Below, piece by piece: positions 13,017-62,671 of a stretch of DNA of 64,000 nt. The stretch spans positions 29,227 through 93,226 of IMG/VR virus record IMGVR_UViG_2850796239_000011, one strand, 5' to 3'. Position 1 is the stretch's first letter; each line of letters begins with the position of its first letter. The notes below the pieces were generated by a model that was given only the letters and a program-made list of their open reading frames with translations, ran no database searches and had not been told where the DNA came from. The translations under genes and the position numbers were made by a program. This stretch comes from a virus (taxonomy: Duplodnaviria > Heunggongvirae > Uroviricota > Caudoviricetes).

Positions 13017-13342
13017 ATGACTAAAAATACTCGTTTTTCCCCGAAGTCCGTCAGAGGGCGATTCGTATGGTTCTGGAAAGTCAGGGCGAATATGACTCAC
13101 AGTGGGCGGCAATTTGTTCCATTGCCCCAAAGATTGGCTGTACACCGGAGACTCTGCGTGTCCGGGTACGCCAGCATGAGCGGGATACCGGAGGCGGTGA
13201 TGGCGGGCTCACCACCGCTGAACGTCAGCGTCTGAAAGAGCTGGAACGTGAAAATCGTGAACTGCGCCGCAGTAACGATATCCTTCGCCAGGCTTCCGCT
13301 TATTTTGCGAAGGCGGAGTTCGACCGCCTCTGGAAAAAATAA
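13017..13342 (+). pseudogene. IS629 orfA with frameshift in a C4 run
   Basis: Translation leaves the OrfA frame after MTKNTRFSP at CCCC 13039..13042 and resumes at 13067. Confidence 0.6.
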
Positions 13343-14229
13343 TGCCACTGCTGGATAAGCTGCGTGAGCAGTACGGGGTCGGACCGCTATGCAGCGAACT
13401 GCATATTGCCCCGTCAACGTATTACCACTGTCAGCAACAGCGACATCATCCGGATAAACGCAGTGCCCGTGCGCAGCGCGATGAGTGGCTGAAGAAAGAG
13501 ATACAGCGCGTATACGATGAAAATCACAAGGTATACGGTGTGCGTAAAGTCTGGCGTCAGTTGTTACGGGAAGGTATCAGAGTGGCCAGATGCACTGTGG
13601 CACGTCTCATGGCGGTTATGGGACTTGCCGGTGTTCTCCGGGGTAAAAAGGTCCGTACGACCATCAGCCGGAAAGCCGTTGCCGCAGGCGACCGCGTAAA
13701 CCGTCAGTTCGTGGCAGAACGACCTGACCAGCTGTGGGTGGCTGATTTTACTTACGTCAGCACATGGCAGGGCTTCGTCTATGTGGCGTTCATCATTGAT
13801 GTGTTTGCCGGATACATCGTGGGGTGGCGGGTCTCATCGTCCATGGACACGACATTCGTGCTGGATGCACTGGAGCAGGCGTTATGGGCCCGTCGACCGT
13901 CCGGCACGGTCCATCACAGTGATAAAGGTTCTCAGTATGTATCGCTGGGCTACACACAGCGGCTTAAGGAAGCCGGATTACTGGCATCAACAGGAAGTAC
14001 AGGCGACTCGTATGACAACGCGATGGCGGAGAGCATCAATGGTCTTTACAAAGCGGAGGTAATACACCGTAAGAGCTGGAAAAACCGTGCAGAAGTGGAA
14101 CTGGCCACACTCACGTGGGTGGACTGGTATAACAATCGACGATTGCTGGAAAGGCTGGGCCATACTCCTCCGGCAGAAGCAGAAAAAGCTTATTATGCTT
14201 CCATCGGAAACGATGATCTGGCAGCCTGA
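13342..14229 (+). CDS. IS629 transposase OrfB
   Basis: 295 aa, DDE transposase. Confidence 0.9.
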   Translation: MPLLDKLREQYGVGPLCSELHIAPSTYYHCQQQRHHPDKRSARAQRDEWLKKEIQRVYDENHKVYGVRKVWRQLLREGIRVARCTVARLMAVMGLAGVLRGKKVRTTISRKAVAAGDRVNRQFVAERPDQLWVADFTYVSTWQGFVYVAFIIDVFAGYIVGWRVSSSMDTTFVLDALEQALWARRPSGTVHHSDKGSQYVSLGYTQRLKEAGLLASTGSTGDSYDNAMAESINGLYKAEVIHRKSWKNRAEVELATLTWVDWYNNRRLLERLGHTPPAEAEKAYYASIGNDDLAA

Positions 14230-14965
14230 GTTCACAGATAAAACACTCTCCAGGAAAACCGGGGCGGTTCAGAAGTTTACATTTTCCCGACCTTCAAGCA
14301 AATGAAGACCTACGATGAACCGTTCAGTTTCCAGATGAGTGACGGCACAACCATCGGCTATCACATCGGCGTGGCCTACAAAGTTGATCCATCCAAAGTT
14401 ACCACAGTCTTTCAGACTTACCGCAAAGGCGTGGATGACATTACCGACACTGACCTGCGCCAGAAAATTGCCGACGCACTCAATCGGCTGGCCAGCAAAA
14501 TGACCACTGACAAATTTATCGACGGCGGCAAGTCTGAACTACTGGATGCCGCACTTAAAGACATTCAGGAAGAGATGACACCCATCGGCATTCAGGTAAT
14601 GAGCCTCTCTTATGTAGGTAAACCGGAATACCCTCCAACCGTTATCGACAGCATTAACGCCAAAGTCACGGCAAACCAGAAAACCCTGCAGCGCGAACAG
14701 GAAGTCAAGCAACGTGAAGCGGAGGCCAACATGCTACGTGCGGAAGCTGCCGGACAGGCTGATGCCATTCGAACAAAAGCCCAGGCAGAAGCCGATGCCA
14801 TTCGTTTACGCGGCGAAGCTCTACGCCAGAACCCAGGCGTCATGGAGCTGGAAGCCATCAACAAGTGGAACGGTACACTGCCGCAATACATGACCAGTGG
14901 TGCCAATACACCATTTATCCAGATTAAATAACTTATATGCCCGGCAGGCCGCCGGGCTAAGGGAA

Positions 14966-15295
14966 ATGCAGATGAACACCCAGAATACTCAACCGCAAAT
15001 AATGAACTATGACCCGAATCTGACGTCATGCGGACGCATGGCAAAACAAACCGTTCGATTAACTTTCGGACTATGGGAATACCGCGAAACATTCGAAGTT
15101 ACTGTCGGCGGCAATCTGACCGGACTGGATGTTATCAGTTGCGCTATTGAAAGCCTGTACGCAACGCTGCCTTATGAAGAAGTCGAGGATGAGCGCACAG
15201 GGGAAACAGATATCATGGCCACCATTAATATTGGCGAACTGATATGTCAGGATGAAGACCTGTCCGGAGAGCTCTGGCTTGCCGGGATGCTTTGA
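14966..15295 (+). CDS. Hypothetical protein, 3' end interrupted by IS600
   Basis: Stop codon is the first TGA of the IS600 end; frame continues after the IS to ~16608. Confidence 0.45.
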   Translation: MQMNTQNTQPQIMNYDPNLTSCGRMAKQTVRLTFGLWEYRETFEVTVGGNLTGLDVISCAIESLYATLPYEEVEDERTGETDIMATINIGELICQDEDLSGELWLAGML

Positions 15296-15356
15296 GGTAG
15301 CCTGAGTTTAACGGACACTCCTTCCTGAAATAGAATGGCATCAGAAGGAGCTAATA

Positions 15357-15659
15357 ATGAGCAGAAAAACCCAACGTTACTCTAAAGAGTTCAAAGCCGA
15401 AGCTGTCAGAACGGTTCTTGAAAATTAACTTTCGATCAGTGAAGGCGCTTCCCGATTATCCCTTCCTGAAGGCACTTTAGGACAATGGGTTACCGCCGCC
15501 AGAAAAGGGCTCGGTACTCCTGGTTCCCGCACGGTGGCTGAACTGGAATCTGAAATTCTGCAACTGCGTAAGGCGTTAAATGAAGCTCGCCTTGAGCGAG
15601 ATATATTAAAAAAAGCAACAGCGTATTTTGCACAGGAGTCGCTGAAAAATACGCGTTAA
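15357..15659 (+). pseudogene. IS600 orfA with nonsense codon (Gln24 to stop)
   Basis: GAA AAT TAA at 15420..15428 versus CAA in copies 1 and 3. Confidence 0.8.
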
Positions 15660-15694
15660 TCGAACAATGGCGACAACAATTTCCCATTGAAGCG

Positions 15695-16513
15695 ATGTGT
15701 CAGGTATTTGGTGTATCCAGGAGCGGTTATTACAACTGGGTACAGCATGAACCCTCAGACAGAAAACAAAGTGATGAGCGGCTAAAACTGGAGATTAAGG
15801 TGGCACATATCCGCACTCGCGAAACATATGGAACCCGGCGGCTCCAGACGGAGCTGGCAGAGAATGGCATCATCGTTGGTCGTGACCGACTGGCACGTCT
15901 TCGTAAGGAGCTAAGGCTACGCTGTAAGCAGAAACGCAAGTTCAGAGCGACTACGAACTCGAACCACAATCTGCCAGTTGCGCCAAATCTGCTGAACCAG
16001 ACGTTCGCTCCTACAGCACCAAATCAGGTCTGGGTGGCGGACCTGACGTATGTTGCCACACAGGAGGGATGGTTGTACCTCGCTGGCATCAAAGATGTTT
16101 ATACGTGCGAAATTGTCGGCTACGCCATGGGAGAGCGCATGACAAAAGAGCTGACAGGTAAAGCCCTGTTTATGGCGCTCAGGAGCCAGCGCCCACCTGC
16201 CGGGCTAATCCACCACTCTGATCGAGGTTCACAGTACTGCGCATACGATTACCGGGTCATACAGGAGCAGTTTGGTCTGAAAACATCAATGTCGCGTAAA
16301 GGTAACTGTTACGACAACGCTCCGATGGAAAGCTTCTGGGGAACGCTGAAAAATGAGAGCCTGAGCCACTATCGTTTTAATAACCGGGATGAAGCCATCT
16401 CAGTAATACGGGAATACATTGAGATTTTCTACAATCGTCAGCGTCGTCACTCTCGTCTGGGGAATATCTCCCCGGCAGCCTTCAGGGAAAAATATCATCA
16501 GATGGCTGCTTAA
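15695..16513 (+). CDS. IS600 transposase OrfB
   Basis: 272 aa, near-identical to other copies. Confidence 0.9.
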   Translation: MCQVFGVSRSGYYNWVQHEPSDRKQSDERLKLEIKVAHIRTRETYGTRRLQTELAENGIIVGRDRLARLRKELRLRCKQKRKFRATTNSNHNLPVAPNLLNQTFAPTAPNQVWVADLTYVATQEGWLYLAGIKDVYTCEIVGYAMGERMTKELTGKALFMALRSQRPPAGLIHHSDRGSQYCAYDYRVIQEQFGLKTSMSRKGNCYDNAPMESFWGTLKNESLSHYRFNNRDEAISVIREYIEIFYNRQRRHSRLGNISPAAFREKYHQMAA

Positions 16514-16641
16514 AAAAAGAACAAATGGTAGTGTCCGCTATTGCCAGTACACCTCACTTATCTCAGCAGAAATTATCAGTATTGAACCCGCTACAAACAT
16601 ACGGCTCTGAAGTTCTCACTATTCAGAGAGCAGGAGAAAAA

Positions 16642-16884
16642 ATGTTCGCTTTGATTAATCAGGGACAACTGTATACCGACAGTGCCGGTTACCCGGTAAA
16701 AATTATTCGCTGCATAAACAACACTGTGTTGTACAGAAGAATGGATGGGCGAACACAGTCAGTAAAAATAAACGATTTCAATGAACTGTTTGAACGGATC
16801 GATCACCAGGAATACCGACAAATTCTGGCAGAAACAGAGCAGGAAGCTCATCTGAAAAAATTACGGGCCATGAAAAGGAAGTAA
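16642..16884 (+). CDS. Hypothetical phage protein (80 aa)
   Basis: RBS AGGAG; followed by a 48-aa ORF at 16888..17034. Confidence 0.45.
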   Translation: MFALINQGQLYTDSAGYPVKIIRCINNTVLYRRMDGRTQSVKINDFNELFERIDHQEYRQILAETEQEAHLKKLRAMKRK

Positions 16885-17042
16885 AGAATGAATAAAGCGT
16901 TTGAGCTATGGGTACGCCAGCGTTACGGCAATCGCTATGACCTGACGCGAGATGTTGACGGTTTCTACTGTCGTGAAATTGTGAAACGAATGTTTGAAGT
17001 GTGGTGCCACTGCCGTGGGCTGAGTGTTGTGTGAGGTAATGC

Positions 17043-17279
17043 ATGGGCAATGTGATTCAACTGGCTCCCAATGAATGGGTTTGTGAAAGCGTTCTTATCG
17101 CAATTACCGGGCTCAAACCAGGCACAATTCTCCGAGCCCGGAAAGAATGCTGGATGGTAGGAAGAGAGTATATTCACGTATCACCAGACGGTAATCCAAA
17201 GCCATCCAGCGAATGTATGTATAACAGAAAAGCAATAGATGCCTGGGTCTCTTCAATGAAAAACAAACAACCTGGGTGA
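17043..17279 (+). CDS. Excisionase-like DNA-binding protein
   Basis: 78 aa, immediately upstream of integrase; recalled excisionase-like pattern. Confidence 0.65.
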   Translation: MGNVIQLAPNEWVCESVLIAITGLKPGTILRARKECWMVGREYIHVSPDGNPKPSSECMYNRKAIDAWVSSMKNKQPG

Positions 17280-17334
17280 TTTAATGCCATGAAGTATGTA
17301 AGCTCGTATCGCTCTTGGGCGTCTGGAGGTATCA

Positions 17335-18648
17335 ATGGATAAAGTCAAATATCCAACAGGCGTCGAAAACCACGGTGGCACATTACGCATCTGGTTTAAT
17401 TTTAAAGGTAAACGTGTCAGGGAAAATCTTGGTGTCCCTGACACTGCCAAGAACAGGAAGATCGCCGGAGAGCTGCGGACATCTGTATGTTTTGCCATTC
17501 GTACAGGAAATTTTGATTATGCTGCGCAGTTCCCTGACTCTCCTAACCTCAAGGCTTTTGGGGTAAATAAAAAAGAAATTACGGTGAAAGAACTTGAAGA
17601 AAAATGGCTGGATCTGAAACGAATGGAAATCTCTGCAAATGCATTCAATCGCTATGAATCCATTGCAAGGATGATGGTTCCGAAGATTGGTGGCAACCGA
17701 CTGGTATCAGCAGTGACCAAAGAGGAATTGCTGTATATCAGGAAAGATTTGCTGACCGGATACCAAAATCCAACAAAAGGTAAAGCTCCAGTAAAAGGAC
17801 GAAGCGTTGTCACAGTAAATTATTACATGACAACAATCGCTGGAATGTTTCAGTTTGCTGCAGATCACGGTTACATAGAAGCAAATCCCTTCGAGGGAAT
17901 TAAGCCTCTTAAAAGAGCCAGGGCAGAACCAGATCCGCTAACTCGTGACGAATTTATTCGCCTGATAGATGCTTGCCGGCATCAGCAGACAAAAAACCTG
18001 TGGTCATTGGCTGTGTACACAGGAATGCGTCATGGTGAACTGGTCTCCCTGGCCTGGGAAGATATCGATCTGAAAGCAGGAACAATTACTATCAGGCGCA
18101 ATTATACGAAACTCGGTGAGTTCACTCTACCTAAAACTGAAGCAAGTACAAACAGGGTTGTGCATCTTATCCAGCCCGCTATCAGTGTCCTGAAAAATCA
18201 GGCTGAAATGACAAGACTGGGTAAGCAGCACAACATCAAGGTTCAACTACGTGAATATGGACGTTCAGTAAATCATGAATGTACTTTCGTATTTAACCCC
18301 CAGGTGGTTAGAAAAAGCAAACAGGTAGGTTTTATCTACAAGGTAGATTCCATTGGCGACTCATGGGAAACAGCCATTAAACGTGCAGGCATCAGGCATC
18401 GAAAGGCATACCAGTCACGACACACTTATGCGTGCTGGTCATTATCTGCCGGAGCAAATCCAAGCTTCATTGCCAGCCAGATGGGGCATGCAAGTGCCCA
18501 GATGGTGTTCAATGTATACGGAGCATGGATGACTGACAGCAATGCAGAACAGATCGCAATGCTGAATCAGAAGCTGGCAGATTATGTCCCAATGATGTCC
18601 CATGGTCACCAAAGTGACACAAGAGGCTTATTAAAATCAGTGAGTTAG
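17335..18648 (+). CDS. Tyrosine integrase (437 aa)
   Basis: Arm-binding N-terminus and C-terminal catalytic region with R...HxxR...Y context. Confidence 0.9.
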   Translation: MDKVKYPTGVENHGGTLRIWFNFKGKRVRENLGVPDTAKNRKIAGELRTSVCFAIRTGNFDYAAQFPDSPNLKAFGVNKKEITVKELEEKWLDLKRMEISANAFNRYESIARMMVPKIGGNRLVSAVTKEELLYIRKDLLTGYQNPTKGKAPVKGRSVVTVNYYMTTIAGMFQFAADHGYIEANPFEGIKPLKRARAEPDPLTRDEFIRLIDACRHQQTKNLWSLAVYTGMRHGELVSLAWEDIDLKAGTITIRRNYTKLGEFTLPKTEASTNRVVHLIQPAISVLKNQAEMTRLGKQHNIKVQLREYGRSVNHECTFVFNPQVVRKSKQVGFIYKVDSIGDSWETAIKRAGIRHRKAYQSRHTYACWSLSAGANPSFIASQMGHASAQMVFNVYGAWMTDSNAEQIAMLNQKLADYVPMMSHGHQSDTRGLLKSVS

Positions 18649-18751
18649 CTTTTAATACCCGTCATGTTAACTGTTAATGAGGGCATTGAGTCGGGGGCTG
18701 GCAGCATACTGCGCAAGCACAGTGGCAGCCACATTCTGCACGTTATGCCTC

Positions 18752-19984
18752 CTAGAGTTTCACACTGATATCCGACACATCCAGAACCGGAATCTCATCT
18801 ATCCCGAAAGTGACAGCCGTTGTCCATGACGAACCGTCACGGCTCACAGTAAGGCCCAGAATATCAATATGTTCCGGATCGGTTTTGTAAATGCCGGCAT
18901 AGTAGCGCCCGGCAGAGACAACAGAGGCAACCCTTGCCCGCAGACCACCATCTGTACCATTAAATGCGTCCAGCACGGATTGCTGTACCTGTCGGGTAAT
19001 ATCTGAAGGCAGGTAGTCACTTTTTTTCAGCGTCACACTGACATGCAGACTGACGGGTTTGAGTGTCTGCCAGCTGATCACGTATTCAGGATACGGCGGA
19101 TCGTACTCCTTATCTGCAACAGTGAACGTTGTGTTGCCATTCATATCAATACCCGGCGGAGCCTTACGCCAGATGGCCGCCGCGATATCTGCCGGGCTGC
19201 CGCCGTACACGCCAACATAAAGCGAACCGGGTGTTAATGGATACTGACTGACTCCGGCTTTTTGTTCTGTTTTTTTCGGATTATGGGTGACGTAAACATC
19301 CACCACGTTTTCTACCGTGGAGAGTATTTCACCCCGGATGGCTTCCAGAATATTCCGGGCATTACGGGCAACTGAATTACGTCGGCGGTTTTCAAAGTCC
19401 GCACGGGTTTCCTCATCGCTGCCCGGCACACCGGCACTGGCGTTAGTGACACCTGACCAGCCAGGTATTGCCTTATAAATTTTATTCAGCGTCCCCACAG
19501 GACAGCCGACGGGGCCGGTGGACAAATTCAGAAATACCGCATCAACCTGCCCTGATGCGCCGATAGTGACGTCTGACTGACTGACATACTTATAACCGGC
19601 CTCATCCTGCGCCATACTGCCCGCCGGGATCAGCGTGCCAACCAGCCCGGTACAGGTCGCTGTTACTGTCGTACCTGTGGCCCCGCGGCGCTCCAGGAAA
19701 TAAATCCTGCCTATTGCATCCTGAAAGCGACCACTGGAAAAGTCAGGGTTGATCTGGTTAACGATATACAGCAACTGGTCGTTTTTATCCGCAATAATGG
19801 CGCTTTCGCTGGATGCAAGTTGTCCCTGCGGACTGCTCAGACTGGTACTCATGGCCCCGCCCAGCGCCGCCGAAAAATCAGCAAGCCTGCCGCTCAGAAT
19901 ATCCGCTTCATCCGGCACATTCAGCCCGCGATCCGAAATCTGTACAGCGGGCACTGCGGTAGAAAAAGATTTATTTTCACTCAT
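18752..19984 (-). CDS. Baseplate J-like protein (Mu gp47 family)
   Basis: 410 aa; gene order sheath-tube-tape measure-baseplate. Confidence 0.7.
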   Translation of the reverse strand: MSENKSFSTAVPAVQISDRGLNVPDEADILSGRLADFSAALGGAMSTSLSSPQGQLASSESAIIADKNDQLLYIVNQINPDFSSGRFQDAIGRIYFLERRGATGTTVTATCTGLVGTLIPAGSMAQDEAGYKYVSQSDVTIGASGQVDAVFLNLSTGPVGCPVGTLNKIYKAIPGWSGVTNASAGVPGSDEETRADFENRRRNSVARNARNILEAIRGEILSTVENVVDVYVTHNPKKTEQKAGVSQYPLTPGSLYVGVYGGSPADIAAAIWRKAPPGIDMNGNTTFTVADKEYDPPYPEYVISWQTLKPVSLHVSVTLKKSDYLPSDITRQVQQSVLDAFNGTDGGLRARVASVVSAGRYYAGIYKTDPEHIDILGLTVSRDGSSWTTAVTFGIDEIPVLDVSDISVKL

Positions 19985-20337
19985 AGCAATACCGTAAAAA
20001 TGTCATTATTGGTATCTGTAATACGCAGCACACCTGTTACTGTCCGGGTTTGATCAGCTGTGACCTGGCAGACAGCGGCGCTCACGGTCGGCAGTTTAAG
20101 TGCTTCCTGTTGCAGAGTGGCATTCACCAGTTGTGTGCCGGGCCAGTGTCCGAGGATGCGTGGCCAGTAAGGTATGCCAGCCGTTGAGTCGTACCAGCAC
20201 TCCCCCAGAAAAGTACTGCACGCACACGCCACATCCTGAGCTACCGCATGGGGATTATCAGTAATGGCAAGATTTCCGGTATCATCAAGCAGGATATCCC
20301 ATGTCCCGGTGTCAAGAAGAAGTGATCGTGACTGCAT
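19981..20337 (-). CDS. Baseplate protein (Mu gp46-like)
   Basis: 118 aa, overlaps neighbours. Confidence 0.6.
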   Translation of the reverse strand: MQSRSLLLDTGTWDILLDDTGNLAITDNPHAVAQDVACACSTFLGECWYDSTAGIPYWPRILGHWPGTQLVNATLQQEALKLPTVSAAVCQVTADQTRTVTGVLRITDTNNDIFTVLL

Positions 20338-20349
20338 GTTTTCTCCTGT

Positions 20350-21027
20350 TTACCGGGGTCCCTGCGTGGTTGAGCCGCCGGACTCAACGCCGCCGTGAAC
20401 GTGGTTTCCAAAATCAATACCCCCGATGTTCGAACCGCCGGAAAGCCTGGACTGCCCGGTAACGTCAAGCCCCTTACTGACGGCGGTATCGCCGTTCAGC
20501 GCAATTTGTGGTGAATTAACGGTGAAGCTTTTCGGCGCATTAATCACACCCTCAGGCGCGGATATCTCCACTTTCCAGGGAGATACAATCCGTATCTGGT
20601 TGTCATCAAATACCACAAACTGGACGGGATCACCGTTGAGCACGCCACCCAGCCAGATGGCATCAGCATAATTATGGGTACGCTTTGATCCCGGCATCGC
20701 AGCCTGACGCGTGGCTTTTACCGCACTGATATCCCGATCGCAGATGGCAAGAAAACCGATATCCCCCACATGTGGCGGCATAATCACCGCATTACCGCCC
20801 CCCTGTAGTCGCCATACGGGAATGTTATAAATCACCTCATGTTCAACCGGGGAACCGTCTGCTGCAACGCCCATTACCATCGGTCGGGCCTCAATAAATC
20901 CCTCTTCCACGGCTACCACCCGTCCCAGAGTGATAAACGCATGACGTCCGAGAAACTGCCGCAGCATAAAGTCCTGTGCATTGATTTCGCTGTTCACGTC
21001 TGTCGGGTTACTGAGTGGTTGTGCCAT
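20350..21027 (-). CDS. Baseplate assembly protein V-like (spike)
   Basis: 225 aa; Gly-rich C-terminus. Confidence 0.6.
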   Translation of the reverse strand: MAQPLSNPTDVNSEINAQDFMLRQFLGRHAFITLGRVVAVEEGFIEARPMVMGVAADGSPVEHEVIYNIPVWRLQGGGNAVIMPPHVGDIGFLAICDRDISAVKATRQAAMPGSKRTHNYADAIWLGGVLNGDPVQFVVFDDNQIRIVSPWKVEISAPEGVINAPKSFTVNSPQIALNGDTAVSKGLDVTGQSRLSGGSNIGGIDFGNHVHGGVESGGSTTQGPR

Positions 21028-21877
21028 TTTCTTCAGCCCTCATCATGGTACAGTTGGAACTCCACGGACCGCCCACGGTTCGCGAAGTAATGGTGTGTAT
21101 CACCCCTGTGATCGTATAATCGCCCGTCATATCAGGCAGTGACGATTCCAGATGCGCTGGCCTGCCAGTAAAGAGATCGGGGCAGAATATCGTGGTGGCG
21201 CTGAGTCCGGTCATGGTGTAAACCGGATAGCCAGTCAGTCCGTGATCCGGCGAAATCAGTACCGGCGGAATATTCCGGTTCTGCCCTTTCGGCCAGATGG
21301 TGACTTTCTCCACATTCCCCAGATCAATGTTAATATCGGCGGCTGAAGCGACATCCAGCATTTGTTGTACAACATTACCGGAAAAATGCGGGTCAGACAG
21401 ACTGCGGCTGACCCCCTGGTTTTCAAATCCAAGCCCGACAGTTGACGCCAGCGCACGGATAATATCTGCAACCGCAACATCGCCCTTTGCGCTGAAATCT
21501 GCCGCCGGCTGATTACGCAGATTAAAATGAATCTGTCCTGTCAGAATGAGCGGAATATCCGGCGCCTGGTTGTAGTCGGCGTATGCATCAGTAATATCAC
21601 CTTCAAAAATAAGCCGCCCGTCGGCCCACAGCCGCATTTTATTTGCGGTACTCTGCTCCTGTCGCCACACACCGCGCCAGCTTAAATTCGTCATATGCGC
21701 CGGTGACATTCCCCAGATATACAGCGTGATTTGTGTACCAGCCACCCCTCCATATACGCCAATACTGGCAAAACAGCTTGCGTCGGTAATGGTCAGCATA
21801 TTGCCCTGGCCATTACCAAACGTTCGTCCGTCTGAAAGAGTGAACTCCACCGTTATTTTACGTTGTCTGTAGCTCAT
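21008..21877 (-). CDS. Baseplate hub/tail protein
   Basis: 289 aa, position. Confidence 0.5.
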
Positions 21878-22176
21878 ATCAGTTCCTCAGGTAACAGCCA
21901 GTAGAGCCGGTACCGGGATCCGAGCCCCCGCCAGTCAGGGTCACTATTCCCCTCCGTGTCGGTAAAAAACAGGTCCCCCTGAAACGGCAGGTATCCGTAC
22001 CGGACAATCCGGTTATTATTCAGACACAGCACGCCATACAGGCACGGTTCACCATTAACAATGATATCGATATACATCCCCGTAGTACGCTGATTCAGGC
22101 GAATGGTGCAGACCTGAGCGCCCAGTGTCACCGTAAACTGCTGGGCTTTAACGGGAGATAAAACAATTTCCAGCAT
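21874..22176 (-). CDS. Hypothetical tail protein (100 aa)
   Basis: Operon position. Confidence 0.4.
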
Positions 22177-22886
22177 CAGGTGATCCCCCTGTTCGTGGCG
22201 CTTCGTCTGTCAGCGTCTGACGGTTGTGTCACCGACGCCGTAACTGACTGCGTTTTAACCGATGCGGCCCCTTTTGCTTTATCGTTGTCCGTGGGAGACG
22301 ACTTATCCGTACTTCCCACTGACACCTCTCCTGTATTCATTACGGTCTGAAATACCGCAGTAACCGTCAGTAAGGTCGGACCATTATTACTTCGCATTCG
22401 GTAGTCATATTTCACAAGGTCGCAGGATGTCCATGTCTTGTCCGGCGTCTCAATATCGTAGAGTCCTGCCGTGGTACGCATCCTTTCAAGCGTTTCCAGC
22501 ACATTCGTCCGCGAGGTGGTGGAAAAATTTGTCAGGTTCGGGACGGATCCGGAAAAGGCCGTCCACCCCTCTACAGTGAAAGTCACATGCAGTTCCGGCG
22601 ATCTCTGGATTTTATTAAAGGTGGTATAAGCCCCCTGCTCCACGGGGACGGTGGAAACAGAAGCCTCCGCGCCCACCTCAACGACAACAAAAGAATCCGG
22701 GGAGAAAGGTTTGCCACCCTTCTGATGGGCACCTGCCGGATCATTCCGTGCGTAATAAATACCGAATGACGGTGCCAGTACACTGTTAATGAGTCCCAGG
22801 ACACCGCCGCCACGAACTGCACTCAGTACGTTACTTTCACTGAGCGAAAAGTTATTCAGGGAAATATTATCGAAAGAAAAACTCAT
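22176..22886 (-). CDS. Tail protein (236 aa)
   Basis: Operon position downstream of tape measure. Confidence 0.5.
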
Positions 22887-24373
22887 CCTGTTACCCCGCT
22901 GGAATAAACCGACACAAGCGCCGAATTCGTGATACGCCGACGTGCGTCATCGGTAATACCCTTCACATTGTCCGACGTTGTGGTGACATTCAGTGTCCCG
23001 ATATGCGTGGTTTCCGTTACGGTGGACTGCGATACAGGCGCAGGATGGCGCGACCGTATGGCCATTGCCGCACCCGGATAAGGCAGGTTCGCCAGCACCC
23101 GCGGAATATAGTTGCGGGTCTCCTCCGGAGCAGCAGCCAGTCCCTTACGCTGAACATTTCCCTCTCCCCAGTTATATGCCGCCAGAGCCTTAGCCAGATC
23201 GCCATGAAAAAAACGTATCAGGCCACCAAGTTTTCTCGCGGCGGCATCAGCGGCTTTTTCGGGATCAAAGGCATCGTTCCCCTCAGACCAAATTCACTGG
23301 CCGTCTTCGGCATGAACTGAAACAGTCCCATCGCACCAGCAGGTGAGACGGCAAACTGATTACCACGGGATTCGGTGATCGCAACGCTGCGCAGCAGTCC
23401 GGGCGGCAGGTTATATTTTTCCTCCAGTTGAGACAGTTTCGGTTGCAGCCAGCCTAACAGGGCTTCCCCGGTCTTCGTCGGTCGCTGGCGGTTTTGCATG
23501 GCATTACCGAGTTTTTCCTGCGTCGCACGCATACCCTGTAGCCAGGATTCACCGAAGGCTGCTTCCCTCCCGGTTGCCTGAGAAGCCTGAGTATCCAGCA
23601 TGCCCTGCTGCCATACTGTGGGTGATTGTGCCCGGGTGATGTTGCCAGGCTTTTCTCCGGCATCCAGTTTTGTCTGATACGTCTCCATCTCTTTCTTATT
23701 GAAAAAGAAAGTCCCGTCTGAAGCCCAGAAAAAACCATGTGAATCCAGCCAGTCCTTATTTTCCCTGCCAACAATGGATGTCAGTAATCCGTCAACAACC
23801 GGGTAAAGCGCCGTTATCGCAAAAAGAAGGCCTCCGGGGCCACTGAGGGCTTTTGTCAGCCCCCCGCACCCATGACGCCACTTTCAGCCCGATCAGCGTA
23901 ATAATGGCATTCTGCCAGCCCCCCAGTTCTCCGGCAGCCTTATTCGCCAGGGAGGCCACTGACTCAACGTCATTCAGAAATGTGGTGATAAACCTGTTCA
24001 CTTCCTCCGGATGTTGCTGCATCCAGTCACCGAGTGTCTCCAGCCAGTGGCTGAGCTTCAGCGCGTACGGCATCAACGCGGTGCTAATCGTCATCCCGAT
24101 GCCGGACCAGGTCTGATCGAGCTCAACAAGCTCTTTTCGTAGCTTACGGGCCAGCGCTATACGCCCCGGCGTAACCTGCGAACGGGAAGTAAATTCGTCC
24201 ACATCTTTCAGCGCATGACCGGAGCCAAGAAACTGCTGTCCGGCATAACTGAAGCCCAGCGCGTTGCCGTAGGCAGTTTGTTCGGACTTTGTCAGTCGCG
24301 GAAAAATAACCGCCAGCTTGCGCATGATGGCTTCAGTGCTGTCAGTATTTAAATCAACACTAGGCTGTGTCCC

Positions 24374-24889
24374 TTAATTACGTAAGCGTTGATAAAAGAG
24401 TCGGATGCAGCCCAGTTTCACCATCGCCAGGTAATTTCTCGCCGTTTTGTCGTAACGCGTGGCGATGCGGCGATATTCTTTCAGCCGCCCAAAGCACCGT
24501 TCAACGACATTACGATTGCGGTACGCATCACGATCAAGCTGTGCACGTCCATCCGATGCCATTTTCTCATTTGACTTTCGGGGGATTACTGCCTTTATAC
24601 CGTTATTTTTCAGCTCGTTGCGCAATGCGCGCCCTGAATACGCTTTATCAGCCAGTACCGCATGTCCACGGCGTTTCATGCTGCCGTTCTGACGCTGAAC
24701 GCCAATCCCGTCCAGAAGTCGTTGCGCGAACTGGCTTTCATGAGCTTGTCCGGGGCTTAGCACGATATTTAACGGGAGGCCACTTCCGTCTGTTGCCAGA
24801 TGGATTTTGGTGCCAAAACCGCCGCGAGAGCGACCCAGCCCATTATCTCCGTCGATATCGGGATGTTTTTTTGAGCACCGGCGGCACAT
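24374..24889 (-). CDS. IS5-family transposase OrfB (DDE part)
   Basis: Downstream overlapping frame; intact in this copy. Confidence 0.7.
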   Translation of the reverse strand: MCRRCSKKHPDIDGDNGLGRSRGGFGTKIHLATDGSGLPLNIVLSPGQAHESQFAQRLLDGIGVQRQNGSMKRRGHAVLADKAYSGRALRNELKNNGIKAVIPRKSNEKMASDGRAQLDRDAYRNRNVVERCFGRLKEYRRIATRYDKTARNYLAMVKLGCIRLFYQRLRN

Positions 24890-25218
24890 TTCAGCGCCCG
24901 GATATTACTGCCATCCAGCGCGGTGGCAGACCAGTCAATAAAGCCGTTTGCATCAAGTAGCGAAAGCAACCTGTTGAAAATAATATTAATCACGCCTGAC
25001 TTTGACCATCGGTTAAAGCGGTTATAAACAGTTTTCCATGACCCATATCGTTCGGGTAAATCGCGCCATGGTGCACCGGAACATAACACCCAGAACATGC
25101 CATTGATGATTTTACGGTGCTCAGCCCATGGGCGTCCGGCCCGTGGTGTGGCGGGTTCAGGAGGTAACAGGGGCTTGATGATGGTCCATGCCTCATCGGG
25201 AAGGTCGTAGCGAGCCAT
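24769..25218 (-). CDS. IS5-family transposase OrfA
   Basis: LPDEAW...GRP...WRDLPERYGSWKTVYNRFNRW motif. Confidence 0.8.
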   Translation of the reverse strand: MARYDLPDEAWTIIKPLLPPEPATPRAGRPWAEHRKIINGMFWVLCSGAPWRDLPERYGSWKTVYNRFNRWSKSGVINIIFNRLLSLLDANGFIDWSATALDGSNIRALKCAAGAQKNIPISTEIMGWVALAAVLAPKSIWQQTEVASR

Positions 25219-26029
25219 AGTTCAATATGTTGTGTAAACAGACAGTTACTATAGCTCAGATGATTAAGGGACACAGCCTAATGCCCGCCCTGGCTGCAAC
25301 CTGAAACAAATCCTGTAACACAGGATCAAAGGACCTTCCGGCTCTGAAGGCCGCTTTTGCATTTGCAAGCCGGGAAAATGCCCCAGACATTTCCCCTTCA
25401 TCAACATTATTTGCCCGCGCAGCCCGTAACCATCCGTCCAGATTTCTGGCCTTCATGCCAAAAGCATCAGATTCCACGGACAGACGGTTCAGATCACGGG
25501 CAAAACCTGTTACCAGGTTCTTCAGCCCCCCCAGCGTCAGACTGACACCCGCAAGAGCCAGAATCTCGCTACGGATCCCTGAAAAAAAACGGGACGCCCG
25601 TTTCCCGGCATCTTCCATTCGACGGGCCGTTTTATCAGCATCTTTTCCGGTTTTTTCCAGTGATTCACTGGTTTTCTTCTGTCCCTGACTGAATGTGTCA
25701 GCGACACCTTCCATCACCGTCGTGAGCCGGTTAAGGGCAGCATGTACTGCCTGTTCCCCGGCAGTAAAGTCCCTGTCATCAATCCCGAGGGACAGAACAA
25801 GCTCATCAAGTACCTGCGCCATTTCTGTTCTCCTGTATCACCTGTTCGTTATGGGCATCCACATGAATTATTTCCAGCAGATCCCATAAGTCCTGCACAC
25901 CAAGGACAGAATCCAGTTCAGCTTTTGAAGCCTTACCGGAGGAGATAACGGTCGCAATGGTACGGGGAACATTAACGTAATCCACCACCCCGAACGGTCT
26001 GTCGGGGTCGAGATAACGCGGGGGGATAT

Positions 26030-26434
26030 CTAGCTGACGACGGTAGCGAAAAAATCCACATGCAGCTTAAAGACCTCCGCACGCAGATTAAGACGGGTAA
26101 TGATTTCTTCAATATCCTCTTCAACAAGCGGTCTCCGGATGCTGCGTTTTTTCGGATCGGGAACAAACTGCACACAGTCCATCATTTCATCCATCAACGG
26201 ACGCGCCTCATCAGGCGGAATTTTCGATAATGCTTTCAGCCCTTCAAGGGCAAGCGCAGCCATCCCCAGACTACGAACATCATCCGGTAACTCCACGCCA
26301 CCACGCCCCATTGCCATAATGGCACGCATCGCCCACCATTCCGCCTGTAAGGCAGACATTTCGGTAAGATGAAATACCTTGCCCTTATCCCGTCCCTGAC
26401 CTTCAATAGTGATAAATTTCTCTTTACGGGCCAT
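26030..26434 (-). CDS. Putative tail assembly chaperone
   Basis: 134 aa between tube and tape measure. Confidence 0.45.
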   Translation of the reverse strand: MARKEKFITIEGQGRDKGKVFHLTEMSALQAEWWAMRAIMAMGRGGVELPDDVRSLGMAALALEGLKALSKIPPDEARPLMDEMMDCVQFVPDPKKRSIRRPLVEEDIEEIITRLNLRAEVFKLHVDFFATVVS

Positions 26435-30270: not shown

Positions 30271-30275
30271 AGCGT

Positions 30276-30614
30276 TTACTCCTGAGGTTTACCCATCACT
30301 TCATCATTGCGGTTAACGCCCGGAGCCGGATTTTTCTGCGGCAGCGGTTCAAGGCCGGATTTAACGGCTTTCTGCTCCGTAGCCTGCGAGACTGCACTGT
30401 TCGCCTTATCCTGCGCAAAAATAACGCCATTTTTCACATAAGGTTGCTGTCCGTGCTCCGCCAGCCAGGCGTCAAAAAACACCTTATCGACCTGCGTCAG
30501 ACCATAGCCCCCACAATTTTAACCGCGTTATTCCGCCAGCCTGCCACCTGAACCCGTTTCTGACCCACTTCCAGCACCAGACCGTTCGGCAGTTTGCAGC
30601 CCACTGTTACCATT
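30276..30614 (-). pseudogene. Hypothetical head protein with frameshift at a C5 run
   Basis: Two frames join into one ~110-aa protein across 30508..30512. Confidence 0.45.
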
Positions 30615-31652
30615 TCAGCCATAACTCACACCCCAGCATTTGTGCATACGCCAGCGGCTGGCGAATAATCGCCCCCAGGTACCAGCGGATTTTTTCTGTT
30701 TCCAGGAAGACGTATCTGCCACTACCGCATGGGCGCGCATTTTTTCAGTGAAAGCGCAATAGACTGTATCCTGTTCACCCAGACGCTCCGCGATAAGCTG
30801 TACCAGCTCGCCAGCGTCAGAGGTGTATTCCACCGCCGTTTCAATGGTCATCGCCGGGAAATTTTTCGCCAGCAGATCGGACACGTTAACCCTGTACTGG
30901 TTTGTTTTGGTGAGGTTCACCTCTGCCAGCGGCGACATGCACAGTTTCATTTTGTCGGTACGCTCAATATGACCGTTAGTCTGTTTCACCAGTTGCTTAA
31001 AGAGTTTCACGATATCGTCATACACGCCCTGTCCGTCCTTGTCGTCCCACTTCAGTTTACCGTCAACGGTATCCGGGGTGATTGGTGCAGATAACGACGG
31101 ATCATTCAGCAAACCGTAGTTCGTCAGTCCGGCAATACCGTAGAAATAGGACTTATTCTGGAACTTATTCAGCGTCAGTGCTGACGCCACGTTCAGCTCT
31201 GCCGCCCAGCCAATACGGGCTGCGCCGTACATCTCCAGCTCACGTTCGCCCCATACGGTGAAGGTCTGGAAGTGATAGCTCTGGCGCGGTACCCAGTTGA
31301 CGTTTGCGCTTACCACCCCGTTGTTGCTGTAATCCCCGTAGGAACTCACCTCCCCGTCAGATTCTGCAATCGGGAATTGTGCCGACAGTGTCGTCCAGTC
31401 ACCTTTTTTGGTTTCGCCCAGAATCTGAGCGGCTTTCATCGGCGTCACCAGCACGCGGATCAGTTCTGGCTCAACGTAATTGGTGAAATACGCAGGGATA
31501 CCGCTGTTAGCCGCTGTGACCAGCGCAGGCTGCGCGTCCATCGCCAGTCCGTAATCGGCGGCGTACTCCTTCGGCAAATAAGCCTGTGCTCCGGGAAGAA
31601 TAATCCCGTAGTCGCGACTTGCCGTCGCATAATGCTGTTTAAATTTATTCAT
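30615..31652 (-). CDS. Major capsid protein
   Basis: 345 aa after scaffold-like gene; C-terminal ~40 aa look out of frame. Confidence 0.7.
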
Positions 31653-33473: not shown

Positions 33474-34290
33474 TTTTTCTCCAGTCCGGGAATAACGGCC
33501 TCCCAGCCACACCGGCAGTTGATTTCTTCGCCCGGCAGTACCCACTTACCATCCAGAAACATCCCCTTTCGCAGGTCAAACCGTTTACCGTTCGCCTTCA
33601 CATGCGACGGACGCCATGTTTTACCCGCGCGGGAATGCCTCCAGACACCTTCAGTGATACCCACCGAACGCTGTCTGGCGGCCTGCATTACCGACGTTGC
33701 CTTATTGTTCTGGTCGCGGGCAATCAGCGCCGCGCGCCGTCGTGTGATGCCGTAACGTTTTTCCAGTTCATCGGTCAGCGTTTTCAGGTCACGTCCCCGG
33801 CCAACAGACTGCATGACCAGTGTTTCCACCTGGGTGAGATGTTGCTGCGGGATGGAGCGAATGAGGTTCACATTCTCCGTGATGCTGGCCTGAAGTGCGG
33901 TATTCATCTCCGTTGTCATACGGAAAGGAACCGTAAACCCGGCATCACGGAGCGCAGTGTACAGTGACGCATCGCTGTTTTTCAGGACATCACCGGCAAA
34001 CCGCCTCGCCAGCCGCAGGGCCATTTCGTCAAAATTTTTCTGCCAGCGCCGGGCAAGTTGCTGCATGGCACCACGCATCAGGTTAACGGGGACGCATCCT
34101 GCGCGAGGTCTGTTTTACGGTACTCAGCCCGCAGCCAGTAAAGTACACTGTTGTGCATCCCACTGACGGCATTATCCAGTTGTCTGCGGTACCAGGCCTC
34201 AATCCCCGCGTTGGGTGAAATCCGCCTCAGGGTCTGCATTCGGGCCTTGCGGCGGATTTTCTTCGGTGTTGTCAATTTCAGTGTCGTCAA
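33470..34290 (-). pseudogene. Head morphogenesis protein (Mu gpF / SPP1 gp7 family) with frameshift
   Basis: N- and C-terminal frames rejoin if GGGG at 34088..34091 gains one base. Confidence 0.55.
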
Positions 34291-40709: not shown

Positions 40710-41193
40710 TGCTGCCCCCACAAACAGACTTCACGCTCAATCTCACGACGGGTCATCAGCCCTTTCCATTGCTTACCGCCAGCATATGTCCAGCGACGTA
40801 GCTGGTCACATGCGCCTTTGATATCGCCCTGGTTTATTTTGCGAAGAAGCGTCGATGTTCTGAAATTGCCAGCGCCCACGTTGTAAACGAACGAGTAAAG
40901 AGCGCCGCGCGTTGTTTCCGGTATATCGACTTTGATGTACGGGTTAATTTGTCTGGCGACAGTGGCAAGGTCTTTATTCAGGAGAGCTTTGCATTCTGCT
41001 TCGGTATACGTTTTACCAGGCATGATGTCTTTTCCGGTGTGTCCGTGACATACAGTCCATACACCAATGATATCTTTGTATGGTATGTAGCTGACACCTT
41101 CCAGACCATCGTTACCACCTGGGCCAGTGATTAGGCTGTGTCCCTTAATCATCTGAGCTATAGTAACTGTCTGTTTACACAACATATTGAACT

Positions 41194-41643
41194 ATGGCTC
41201 GCTACGACCTTCCCGATGAGGCATGGACCATCATCAAGCCCCTGTTACCTCCTGAACCCGCCACACCACGGGCCGGACGCCCATGGGCTGAGCACCGTAA
41301 AATCATCAATGGCATGTTCTGGGTGTTATGTTCCGGTGCACCATGGCGCGATTTACCCGAACGATATGGGTCATGGAAAACTGTTTATAACCGCTTTAAC
41401 CGATGGTCAAAGTCAGGCGTGATTAATATTATTTTCAACAGGTTGCTTTCGCTACTTGATGCAAACGGCTTTATTGACTGGTCTGCCACCGCGCTGGATG
41501 GCAGTAATATCCGGGCGCTGAAATGTGCCGCCGGTGCTCAAAAAAACATCCCGATATCGACGGAGATAATGGGCTGGGTCGCTCTCGCGGCGGTTTTGGC
41601 ACCAAAATCCATCTGGCAACAGACGGAAGTGGCCTCCCGTTAA
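41194..41643 (+). CDS. IS5-family transposase OrfA
   Basis: Identical to copy A OrfA. Confidence 0.8.
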   Translation: MARYDLPDEAWTIIKPLLPPEPATPRAGRPWAEHRKIINGMFWVLCSGAPWRDLPERYGSWKTVYNRFNRWSKSGVINIIFNRLLSLLDANGFIDWSATALDGSNIRALKCAAGAQKNIPISTEIMGWVALAAVLAPKSIWQQTEVASR

Positions 41644-42037
41644 ATATCGTGCTAAGCCCCGGACAAGCTCATGAAAGCCAGTTCGCGCAACGACTTCTGG
41701 ACGGGATTGGCGTTCAGCGTCAGAACGGCAGCATGAAACGCCGTGGACATGCGGTACTGGCTGATAAAGCGTATTCAGGGCGCGCATTGCGCAACGAGCT
41801 GAAAAATAACGGTATAAAGGCAGTAATCCCCGAAAGTCAAATGAGAAAATGGCATCGGATGGACGTGCACAGCTTGATCGTGATGCGTACCGCAATCGTA
41901 ATGTCGTTGAACGGTGCTTTGGGCGGCTGAAAGAATATCGCCGCATCGCCACGCGTTACGACAAAACGGCGAGAAATTACCTGGCGATGGTGAAACTGGG
42001 CTGCATCCGACTCTTTTATCAACGCTTACGTAATTAA
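41523..42037 (+). pseudogene. IS5-family transposase OrfB with frameshift
   Basis: CCCC at 41828..41831 versus five in copy A; frame diverges after KAVIP. Confidence 0.7.
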
Positions 42038-42119
42038 GGGACACAGCCTAACACAGATGCTATAGCAACAGCCCCGCCACCAATAGCAACTGCAACAGCC
42101 TTGCGTAATGATGGCGACA

Positions 42120-53110: not shown

Positions 53111-53134
53111 AGCCCCGAGGGAACGGGCTTTTTG
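53111..53134 (+). terminator. Putative intrinsic terminator
   Basis: GCCCC...GGGC hairpin followed by TTTTT just after stop codon. Confidence 0.45.
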
Positions 53135-60597: not shown

Positions 60598-61026
60598 ATG
60601 AAATTAGACCAGCAATATCTAAAAGATCTACTTATCGCATTCGAAAAAACTTATGGCCCTGACACGATGCTTAGTGAACTAGAGGATAATGGCTTTAATA
60701 GATATGACCAAAATTTTATTTTCCATATGCGATTATTATGTGACTACGAATTAATAGTTAGGGTTGATGGAAAACCTGGGTTCGGTCATATAATGTCCAA
60801 CGAGTTAGGGGAAGGTGTTGAATATAGTTGGATCGAAGTACCACTGAGGTTGACAGCAAGAGGGCATGATTTTATTGCTGACTTACGTCAAAAGGAGGTC
60901 TGGCAAGCTATAAAAACAAACTTTAAGGATGAGGGAATTAGTACTCTTATGAGTGTTTCAAAATCACTAGCAAAAGGCTTTGCAAGGAAAAAAATAAAAG
61001 ATATTACAGGAATAGATATTGAATAA
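60598..61026 (+). CDS. DUF2513-like protein (142 aa)
   Basis: AT-rich gene near int; family by recall. Confidence 0.5.
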   Translation: MKLDQQYLKDLLIAFEKTYGPDTMLSELEDNGFNRYDQNFIFHMRLLCDYELIVRVDGKPGFGHIMSNELGEGVEYSWIEVPLRLTARGHDFIADLRQKEVWQAIKTNFKDEGISTLMSVSKSLAKGFARKKIKDITGIDIE

Positions 61027-61316
61027 TTCTTAGCATCAAGCAACTACTGCCTTTGGTAAAAATTATATCTGAACTCGATACGGCGAGTTTTGTTTTACGG
61101 AGATGATAAATGCACTTCAGAGTCACTGGTGAATGGAATGGAGAACCATTCAACAGAGTTATCTAAGCAGAGAACATCAATGACTGCTATGACCACTGGA
61201 TGATATGGGCGCAGATAGCACATGCAGACATAACCAATATTCGAATTGAAGAACTGAAAGAACACCAAGCCGCCTGATGGCGGTTTTTTCTTGCGTGTAA
61301 TTGCGGAGACTTTGCG

Positions 61317-61535
61317 ATGTACTTGACACTTCAGGAGTGGAACGCTCGCCAGCGACGCCCAAGAAGCCTTGAAACAGTTCGTCGATGGGTGCGCGAATGC
61401 AGGATATTCCCTCCTCCGGTTAAGGATGGAAGAGAATATCTGTTCCACGAATCAGCGGTAAAGGTTGACTTAAATCGACCAGTAACAGGTAGCCTTTTGA
61501 AGAGGATCAGAAATGGGAAGAAGGCGAAGTCATGA
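61317..61535 (+). CDS. xis: Excisionase Xis (lambda)
   Basis: 72 aa, near-identical to lambda Xis. Confidence 0.95.
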   Translation: MYLTLQEWNARQRRPRSLETVRRWVRECRIFPPPVKDGREYLFHESAVKVDLNRPVTGSLLKRIRNGKKAKS

Positions 61536-62583
61536 GCGCCGGGATTTACCCCCTAACCTTTATATAAGAAACAATGGATATTACTGCTACAGGGACCCAA
61601 GGACGGGTAAAGAGTTTGGATTAGGCCGAGACAGGCGAATCGCAATCACTGAAGCTATACAGGCCAACATTGAGTTATTTTCAGGACACAAACACAAGCC
61701 TCTGACAGCGAGAATCAACAGTGATAATTCCGTTACGTTACATTCATGGCTTGATCGCTACGAAAAAATCCTGGCCAGCAGAGGAATCAAGCAGAAGACA
61801 CTCATAAATTACATGAGCAAAATTAAAGCAATAAGGAGGGGTCTGCCTGATGCTCCACTTGAAGACATCACCACAAAAGAAATTGCGGCAATGCTCAATG
61901 GATACATAGACGAGGGAAAGGCGGCATCAGCCAAGTTAATCAGATCAACACTGAGCGATGCATTCCGAGAGGCTATGGCTGAAGGCCATATAACAACAAA
62001 CCCGGTCGCAGCCACTCGCGCTGCAAAATCAGAGGTAAGGAGATCAAGACTTACGGCTGACGAATACCTGAAAATTTATCAAGCAGCAGAATCATCACCA
62101 TGTTGGCTTAGACTTGCAATGGAACTGGCTGTTGTTACCGGGCAGCGAGTTGGTGATTTATGCGAAATGAAGTGGTCTGATATCGTAGATGGATATCTTT
62201 ATGTCGAGCAAAGCAAAACAGGCGTAAAAATTGCCATCCCAACAACATTGCATGTTGATGCTCTCGGGATATCAATGAAGGAAACACTTGATAAATGCAA
62301 AAAGATTCTTGGCGGAGAAACCATAATTGCATCTACTCGTCGTGAACCGCTTTCATCCGGCACAGTATCAAGGTATTTTATGCGCGCACGAAAAGCATCA
62401 GGTCTCTCCTTCGAAGGGGATCCGCCAACCTTTCACGAGTTGCGCAGTTTGTCTGCAAGACTCTATGAGAAGCAGATAAGCGATAAATTTGCTCAACATC
62501 TTCTCGGGCATAAGTCGGACACCATGGCATCACAGTATCGTGATGACAGAGGCAGGGAGTGGGACAAAATTGAAATCAAATAA
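61513..62583 (+). CDS. int: Integrase Int (lambda)
   Basis: 356 aa, near-identical to lambda Int. Confidence 0.95.
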   Translation: MGRRRSHERRDLPPNLYIRNNGYYCYRDPRTGKEFGLGRDRRIAITEAIQANIELFSGHKHKPLTARINSDNSVTLHSWLDRYEKILASRGIKQKTLINYMSKIKAIRRGLPDAPLEDITTKEIAAMLNGYIDEGKAASAKLIRSTLSDAFREAMAEGHITTNPVAATRAAKSEVRRSRLTADEYLKIYQAAESSPCWLRLAMELAVVTGQRVGDLCEMKWSDIVDGYLYVEQSKTGVKIAIPTTLHVDALGISMKETLDKCKKILGGETIIASTRREPLSSGTVSRYFMRARKASGLSFEGDPPTFHELRSLSARLYEKQISDKFAQHLLGHKSDTMASQYRDDRGREWDKIEIK

Positions 62584-62671
62584 TGATTTTATTTTGACTG
62601 ATAGTGACCTGTTCGTTGCAACAAATTGATAAGCAATGCTTTTTTATAATGCCAACTTAGTATAAAAAGCA
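62584..62671. other. attL (lambda P' arm plus core) at the prophage-chromosome junction
   Basis: P' arm sequence, core TTAGTATAAAAAGC (five A), then chromosomal arm AGGCTTCAACGGATTC. Confidence 0.8.

Follow-up and report, generated by a model that had tools for sequence, protein, structure and literature searches.

Shigella is a textbook case of genome decay, and the pseudogenes of its cryptic prophages reflect IS insertion together with small frameshifts. Genes are also fragmented in long-read assemblies, in which errors are predominantly short homopolymer indels (PMC12007338). In consensus sequences derived from PacBio CLR or Nanopore reads only, the characteristic artefacts are one-base indels in mononucleotide runs, with a bias toward deletion, and genes split into adjacent fragments that a single added base repairs.

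The stretch of DNA analyzed here (hereafter, the window) is 64,000 nt in length and corresponds to positions 29,227 to 93,226 of the virus record IMGVR_UViG_2850796239_000011. The original prediction held that recurrent one-base indels in homopolymer runs break otherwise intact genes of the window, and it gave two possible causes, systematic assembly error or the decay of a cryptic prophage. Each of these indels does break or alter a reading frame that orthologous E. coli prophages keep intact, although this observation appears to be mostly an assembly artefact and otherwise ordinary. The two causes were offered as alternatives; both appear to occur, at different sites, with assembly error covering most of them.

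Six of the homopolymer indels (23279, 30508, 30631, 30672, 34088, and 53125) resemble the long-read artefacts: they are one-base deletions in mononucleotide runs, they split genes that an added base repairs, and they are missing from presumed short-read data of the same clone. They differ in affecting G/C runs only, with no A/T run hit, and in their uneven density, and the long-read platform is itself presumed here. When lesions were scored by their presence in independently sequenced relatives, as expected of inherited changes, the extra C at 23860, the short attL core at 62664, the 12-bp in-frame deletion at 32807, and the IS600 and IS5-family insertions were all common to the clone, as was truncation of the baseplate J gene, in keeping with other Shigella cryptic prophages. 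The six deletions, in contrast, are not clone-wide and thus behave unlike inherited lesions.

Source Assembly and Comparison Set

The window derives from CP026875.1 (GCA_002950355.1), a Shigella chromosome; the capsid locus of this record is contained letter for letter in the window, and a 345-aa variant of the major capsid protein is recorded on this contig only. From the accession block, we infer that CP026875.1 is probably a PacBio-only assembly of a historical CDC Shigella strain: two papers place historical CDC Shigella strains in the CP0267xx-CP0268xx block and attribute CP026832, sequenced with PacBio, to Kim et al., 2018 (PMC10132075; PMC9455713). No mention of CP026875 or its assembly accession was found in the literature searched.

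A phage collection searched with the structural module yielded no close match (best coverage 10%), and prophages in E. coli genomes were therefore used as references. The same-clone comparison covered 41,758 bp (41.8 kb) of the window, using the best-matching contigs from at least five samples: SRR3793777 (contig L019), GCA_012668945.1 (L020 and L042), GCA_000193915.2, GCA_003572355.1, and SRR1811688. Because these contigs end at IS elements, they are taken to be short-read assemblies. The 12-bp deletion in the DUF2213 head gene is a real clone marker and serves as a positive control; it is common to the same contigs, which places them in the same lineage as the window.

Two regions were compared separately. 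No record was found of the protein encoded by the 620-aa ORF at 4873-6735, the probable reason being that gene calling had placed the start elsewhere. A search with a 463-aa helicase gave relatives that are ∼1% divergent, and the first 10.5 kb was compared with these more distant sequences; against them, positions 1-10524 have no G/C-run indel. Between 38.7 and 41.1 kb, ∼1.1 kb (38713-39820) was covered by two contigs (L056 and L057), with no indel in either and four substitutions in L056.

Table 1. Homopolymer runs, IS elements, and the clone marker in the window, with their state in other assemblies.
Feature	Position	Strand	State elsewhere or remark
IS629-type IS3-family element, 1309 bp	12963..14271	+	inverted-repeat ends at 12963 and 14271
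CCCC, codon 9 of IS629 orfA	13039..13042	+	CCCCC in canonical element
CCCC, tape-measure/lytic-transglycosylase gene	23279..23282	-	CCCCC in every other assembly
CCCCCC, tape-measure gene, +1 frameshift	23860..23865	-	C6 in L019 and L020; C5 in E. coli relatives and L017
IS5-family copy A, 922 bp, in tape-measure gene	24361..25282	-	
CCCCC, 115-aa head-module gene	30508..30512	-	C6 in 15/15 other covering loci, including zero-substitution L013 and L014
CCCC near 3' end of major capsid gene	30631..30634	-	five C
CCCCC near 3' end of major capsid gene	30672..30676	-	six C
12-bp in-frame deletion, DUF2213 head gene	32807	-	present in L011-L016; E. coli orthologs without it
GGGG, head-morphogenesis (Mu F-like) gene	34088..34091	-	G5 in 14/14 other covering loci
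IS5-family copy B, 921 bp, in lysis region	41130..42050	+	single gap and no mismatch versus copy A
CCCC, transposase ORF of copy B	41828..41831	+	five in copy A and E. coli copies
GGG, 3' arm of intergenic terminator-like hairpin (GCCCC-loop-GGGGC-TTTTT)	53125..53127	+	four G
AAAAA, lambda-type attL core (B-O-P' junction) adjoining int	62664..62668	+	L042 (GCA_012668945.1) matches window through site

One-Base Deletions in G/C Runs

Relative to the best same-clone contigs, the window has no substitution and no insertion; it differs by 6 one-base deletions, all of them within G/C runs whose longer length in the other assemblies is 4-6 bases (Table 1). The longer runs are carried by contigs with zero substitutions relative to the window (L013, L014, L019, L020, L042, L050, L051, and L054) and by every one of the more distant E. 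coli orthologs, and none of the six deletions occurs in any of the at least five other clone samples. G/C runs of three or more bases comprise 6.2% of the compared bases and hold all six private indels (P ∼5e-8), while A/T runs, though more numerous, hold none (P ∼0.002 for restriction to G/C among homopolymers). The excess of indels over substitutions (6 vs. 0) would have P ∼6e-7 if the true ratio were 1:10.

Given that they are private, and that clone assemblies which otherwise match the window lack them, these deletions are most likely consensus errors, and we consider it very probable that all six are errors of one assembly, alongside a separate and genuine decay of the prophage. Consensus error is a cause that we infer from four computed properties, namely the private distribution, the restriction to G/C runs, the zero substitutions, and the restoration of ORFs. 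The CP026875.1 consensus would have lost a single base from certain short G/C runs, leading to apparent frameshifts in the tape-measure, capsid, 115-aa head, and head-morphogenesis genes, and, at 53125, to a shortened terminator stem.

Adding the bases back restores the ORF lengths of the relatives. At 23279, where five C are present in all E. coli orthologs and in the same-clone contigs L019 and L020 (no substitution in 7.8 kb), a 156-aa fragment becomes a 268-aa ORF, as called in L019. The base restored at 30508 gives the 115-aa ORF, and restoration at both 30631 and 30672 gives a capsid of 342 aa, as in all relatives, instead of the 345-aa variant. At 34088, where L013 and L014 have no substitutions, the added base joins fragments of 53 and 202 aa into one continuous head-morphogenesis ORF. 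The four G at 53125 are present in five contigs (L042, L049, L050, L051, and L054), and this is the sole difference across positions 42054-64000. Each of these sites is, on the sequence comparison, most likely an artefact.

Nearly all of the runs were found where the original prediction had placed them (13039-13042 in the 1309-bp IS629 element, 23860-23865, 30508-30512, 34088-34091, 41828-41831, and 62664-62668). For the “G run near 23273” the run stands and the position does not: it is CCCC at 23279-23282 on the plus strand, and GGGG on the coding strand. Three further sites of the same kind had been missed, at 30631-30634 (C4), 30672-30676 (C5), and 53125-53127 (G3). Comparison with related prophages, which had been proposed as a check, divides the listed sites, since 23279, 30508, and 34088 are private to this assembly (three of the eight listed, supporting error), whereas 23860 and 62664 are shared with independent clone assemblies (two of the eight, supporting decay).

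The deletions are unevenly spread, as also indicated by the absence of G/C-run indels from positions 1-10524 relative to the ∼1% divergent relatives. Five lie in prophage genes of the GC-richer structural module, within 11 kb, and three of these fall inside 165 bp (30508-30672); one lies in the 22-kb early region. The resulting density is ∼1 deletion per 7-8 kb. The comparison was extended to 5.9 kb of chromosome on the right side of the window, where no difference was seen, and elsewhere outside the window the same assembly has one more G5-versus-G6 case (L058 position 18270).

Two C4 runs within IS elements have the same signature as the private deletions, and are probably artefacts of the same cause. 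Full-length IS629 matches in E. coli are 1310 bp, one base longer than the copy in the window; an exact copy with four C occurs in 5 of 4926 E. coli records, and one C added at 13039 gives a 108-aa OrfA. In the IS5-family pair, the run at 41828 is the sole difference between copies, and copy B has a transposase ORF of 135 aa vs. 171 aa in copy A; the C4 state was found at 0 of 63 places in 14 E. coli records. IS copies are collapsed in short-read assemblies, and the IS629 copy is spanned by none of the short-read contigs.

The CP026875.1 assembly, and probably its sister assemblies, are thus likely to contain many false frameshifts, which at ∼1 per 7-8 kb would amount to several hundred genome-wide. 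As Shigella is a model for genome decay, such errors would inflate pseudogene counts and exaggerate prophage degradation. The value of the listed coordinates is practical, as they are directly correctable.

Alternative Explanations for the Short Runs

All of the homopolymer indels could instead be genuine, with the sequenced stock having acquired private -1 frameshifts as prophage genes free of selection continued to decay. The prophage is defective and unselected, as seen from its IS insertions and truncated baseplate J gene, selection would not protect the structural genes that hold five of the six private deletions, the changes at 23860 and 62664 are real in the clone, and a sequenced stock could in principle hold private mutations. 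Even so, we regard this explanation as unlikely, given that six indels accompany zero substitutions in 41.8 kb, that 6/6 are deletions and 6/6 are in G/C runs despite the commoner A/T runs, that three are clustered within 165 bp and one lies in an intergenic terminator stem, and that 0/6 were found in the at least five other clone samples; extended genome-wide, the density would also imply hundreds of frameshifts. A narrower form, in which a -1 frameshift process specific to G/C runs acted in the archival stock (stress-induced slippage of the Pol IV type over decades in storage, for instance, seen chiefly where prophage DNA is unselected), would make the six deletions real and is very unlikely.

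It is scarcely credible that the window is correct and that short-read assemblers or polishing lengthened the runs in the comparison assemblies. One Logan contig (L012, from DRR015921) has an additional C at the 30672 site (C7, against C6 in the others), so run-length errors do exist in some of these assemblies. The longer runs, however, are present in all of up to 15 loci, which span NCBI drafts, Logan assemblies, and complete E. coli genomes from varied pipelines and years; agreement at six sites is not expected of independent errors, and intact conserved ORFs result from the longer runs only, and on these grounds the explanation was rejected.

Programmed frameshifts are used by IS3-family elements and tail-chaperone genes and every site here is a mononucleotide run, but the idea that these are functional slippery or phase-variable tracts (contingency loci) was rejected as practically without credence, because the runs are merely 3-6 bases long and, this assembly excepted, constant in length among relatives (up to 15 other loci), while the IS629 site is at orfA codon 9, away from the orfA-orfB overlap, and in all relatives the capsid and head-morphogenesis genes each form one uninterrupted ORF.

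Inherited Lesions and the Attachment Site

Apart from the consensus errors proposed above, the prophage is defective regardless, mainly through IS insertions and truncation rather than through homopolymer indels. The genuine lesions include two IS5-family insertions (one disrupting the tape-measure gene, one in the lysis region), an IS600 interrupting the terminase region, and truncation of the baseplate J gene at the junction with a neighboring prophage. The copy A insertion is absent from L001-L006 and occurs at the same position in L011, and the same-clone contigs end there, all of which indicates a real disruption of the tape-measure gene.

The extra C at 23860 is common to other clone assemblies and is therefore a real +1 frameshift fixed in the clone; removal of one C gives a 480-aa ORF that reaches the IS insertion. 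The five-A attL core is likewise shared with an independent clone assembly and, on that basis, is a real one-base shortening in the clone. Genuine homopolymer indels thus do happen in this prophage, and these two lesions are a minor detail on an element that was already defective and IS-riddled.

The attachment site resembles lambda attL (the gal-bio site, near ybhC) in adjoining a gene for a 356-aa lambda-type Int (Arm-DNA-bind_1 and Phage_integrase domains) with Xis upstream, and in having ybhC (pectinesterase family) directly downstream of the core. The core in the window, TTAGTATAAAAA(A)GC, read in reverse complement, is the lambda core, GCTTTTTTATACTAA. It differs in having five A in this clone, compared with six A in ten further genomes whose Int is identical, and the rest of the phage in the window is unlike lambda, having a tail of myovirus type and a head module of E217/Mu-F type. 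A second core (attR) was not found within the window. Int and a 483-aa DnaB-like protein were also tried as baits for same-clone contigs and set aside, as both are widespread and brought in unrelated P22-like or lambda-like loci. The loci fetched with Int were still informative on the length of the attL run.

Homopolymer runs compared within the clone

The short mononucleotide runs that the original prediction linked to broken genes are present where it placed them, except that its "G run near 23273" is CCCC at 23279-23282. IS629 is indeed one base short (1309 bp, compared with 1310 bp in E. coli), and the two IS5-family copies, A and B, differ solely by one G/C in a run. Aligning the 18-kb structural module with the orthologous prophage in E. 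coli FDAARGOS_943 shows one-base indels at six C/G runs (23279, 23860, 30508, 30631, 30672, and 34088), and one 12-bp in-frame deletion (32807), which leaves a DUF2213 head protein of 445 aa rather than 449 aa. Five more E. coli orthologs match FDAARGOS_943 at every one of these indel sites. Because the 12-bp deletion is common to six other assemblies of the clone and absent from the E. coli orthologs, it is a real deletion and a useful lineage marker.

Comparison contigs were chosen via lineage-specific window proteins, by fetching contigs that encode exactly identical proteins (SRR3793777, GCA_012668945.1, GCA_000193915.2, GCA_003572355.1, GCA_014021235.1, SRR1811688, and DRR015921). These contigs terminate where the window has IS elements, a pattern typical of short-read assemblies, and are assigned to the same clone because they have the 12-bp deletion in common with it. 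Over the intervals compared (16529-24385, 25256-37209, and 42054-64000; 41,758 bp in total), there are no substitutions or insertions between the window and the best-matching contigs, and the window departs from them only by lacking a single base at six sites (see table), three of which fall inside 165 bp. Three of these sites (30631, 30672, and 53125) are additions to the original prediction. No difference from a same-clone assembly was found in 5.9 kb more of chromosome past the right end of the window. At the 30672 site, the DRR015921 contig has C7, compared with C6 elsewhere, and its capsid is called at 346 aa; at least one of the comparison assemblies is thus also affected by run-length miscalls.

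In the 1-10.5 kb region, comparison with relatives about 1% divergent revealed no G/C-run indel. At 12247-12254 the window has A8, compared with A7 in five relatives (about 0.3-1% diverged), which could be a real or a consensus insertion.

Origin of the deletions

The original prediction had allowed either decay of a cryptic prophage or homopolymer error; error fits the six private sites, and decay fits 23860 and the attL core, where same-clone contigs carry the change. Judged from these alignments, most of the observation appears to be an artefact of one assembly, with two sites real and two, in IS elements, less certain but probably artefacts. There is no new biological feature among the homopolymer runs. 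Restoring the six bases yields ORF lengths as in relatives (a 342-aa capsid, its 115-aa neighbor, and a 268-aa transglycosylase fragment) and, again as in relatives, a continuous head-morphogenesis ORF. The G missing at 53125 is intergenic, and costs one base pair in the stem of a terminator-like hairpin, which directly follows a 177-aa ORF (52577-53110) and has the N gene (53914) downstream of it.

Private, real mutations of the sequenced stock are a possible alternative, but their spectrum, which is indel-only, deletion-only, and G/C-only, speaks against this, as does the implied genome-wide load. With one indel expected for about every ten substitutions, six indels and zero substitutions have P of about 6e-7; G/C runs account for 6.2% of compared bases yet contain all six deletions (P about 5e-8), and A/T runs, although there are more of them, contain none (P about 0.002). 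As many as 15 loci produced by different pipelines agree, which excludes that the comparison assemblies are wrong and the window right; the shortness of the runs and their constant length among relatives exclude programmed or phase-variable frameshifting.

The error reading is consistent with the presumed source. The 345-aa capsid variant (30615-31652) is on record on one contig only, the 5.16-Mb chromosome CP026875.1 (GCA_002950355.1), and the locus taken from it matches part of the window letter for letter; proteins identical to window proteins carry Shigella boydii names. Neighbors in the CP0267xx-CP0268xx accession block are historical CDC Shigella strains (PMC10132075; PMC9455713), and PMC10132075 refers to one of the block, CP026832, as a PacBio sequence (Kim et al. 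2018). From these neighboring accessions we infer a long-read-only origin for CP026875.1. Errors in long-read assemblies are described as chiefly homopolymer indels that fragment genes (PMC12007338).

Just to the left of the window, CP026875.1 has G5 (position 18270 of locus L058), compared with G6 in a relative (L059), and the neighboring prophage's DUF1441 gene (terminase small subunit-like) is broken up as a result (98-aa vs. 164-aa product); the signature is identical to that of the artefacts in the window. In another complete public genome, E. coli CFSAN029787 (loci L004 and L006), the match to window position 29510 is G6, compared with G7 in all 15 other loci, and the gene is annotated as "frameshifted"; that assembly may have suffered a homopolymer error of this kind as well.

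At two sites inside IS elements, 13039 in IS629 and 41828 in IS5-family copy B, the window has C4 runs that are deletions relative to the canonical element. They lie beyond the same-clone check, since short-read assembly merges repeated IS copies. Of 4926 E. coli records, just 5 contain the IS629 segment exactly with C4; the IS5-family segment has 63 matching places, all without C4; and one added C restores the 108-aa IS629 OrfA. Both are probably artefacts, as the error signature fits.

Prophage structure and real lesions

Artefacts aside, the right-hand prophage, whose lambda-type Int and attL adjoin ybhC, is defective. C6 at 23860 is seen in both same-clone contigs covering the site, and the attL core A5 in a same-clone contig (GCA_012668945.1), compared with A6 in ten other genomes with identical Int; since same-clone contigs have both changes, these are ordinary, real lesions. 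No second core was found in a search within the window. Given what is established about lambda site-specific recombination, a core spacing off by one base, combined with the lack of attR, would be expected to block excision by Int.

Features of the window and private run-length differences
Feature	Position	Description
Lambdoid prophage	about 18.7-62.7 kb	right part of window; Int/attL, early, lysis, head and contractile-tail modules
Second, different prophage	1-18.6 kb (1-18650)	fills left part of window
437-aa integrase of left prophage	17335-18648	directly abuts truncated baseplate J; junction about 18650-18752
IS elements		three IS600, one IS629, two copies of a 922-bp IS5-family element
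Terminator-like hairpin	53112-53134	GCCCC-GAGGGAAC-GGG(G)C then TTTTT
Lesion		IS5-family element splits tape-measure gene; other copy in lysis region
Lesion		IS600 interrupts terminase region
Lesion		baseplate J gene truncated
Lesion	23860	fixed +1 frameshift, tape-measure gene
Lesion		attL core minus one base
Run	23279	window C4; other assemblies C5
Run	30508	window C5; other assemblies C6
Run	30631	window C4; other assemblies C5
Run	30672	window C5; other assemblies C6
Run	34088	window G4; other assemblies G5
Run	53125	window G3; other assemblies G4

The baseplate J gene is cut off at about 18,666, beyond which lies the second prophage's integrase, and this junction is identical in the clone's other assemblies (L019-L021). 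Nine substitutions relative to the E. coli orthologs cluster at 37210-37267, shortly ahead of IS600, inserted at 37449, and two Logan contigs stop beside them at 37209; the large terminase gene may therefore contain a mosaic or recombination boundary here.

The left prophage contains a repressor, replication genes, a RusA/Q region, two IS600 copies, and IS629. It also has side-by-side small genes with TumE (PF20126) and HVO_A0114 (PF25212) domains (5791-6439, + strand), conserved in relatives L059-L063, which may form a toxin-antitoxin or defense pair.
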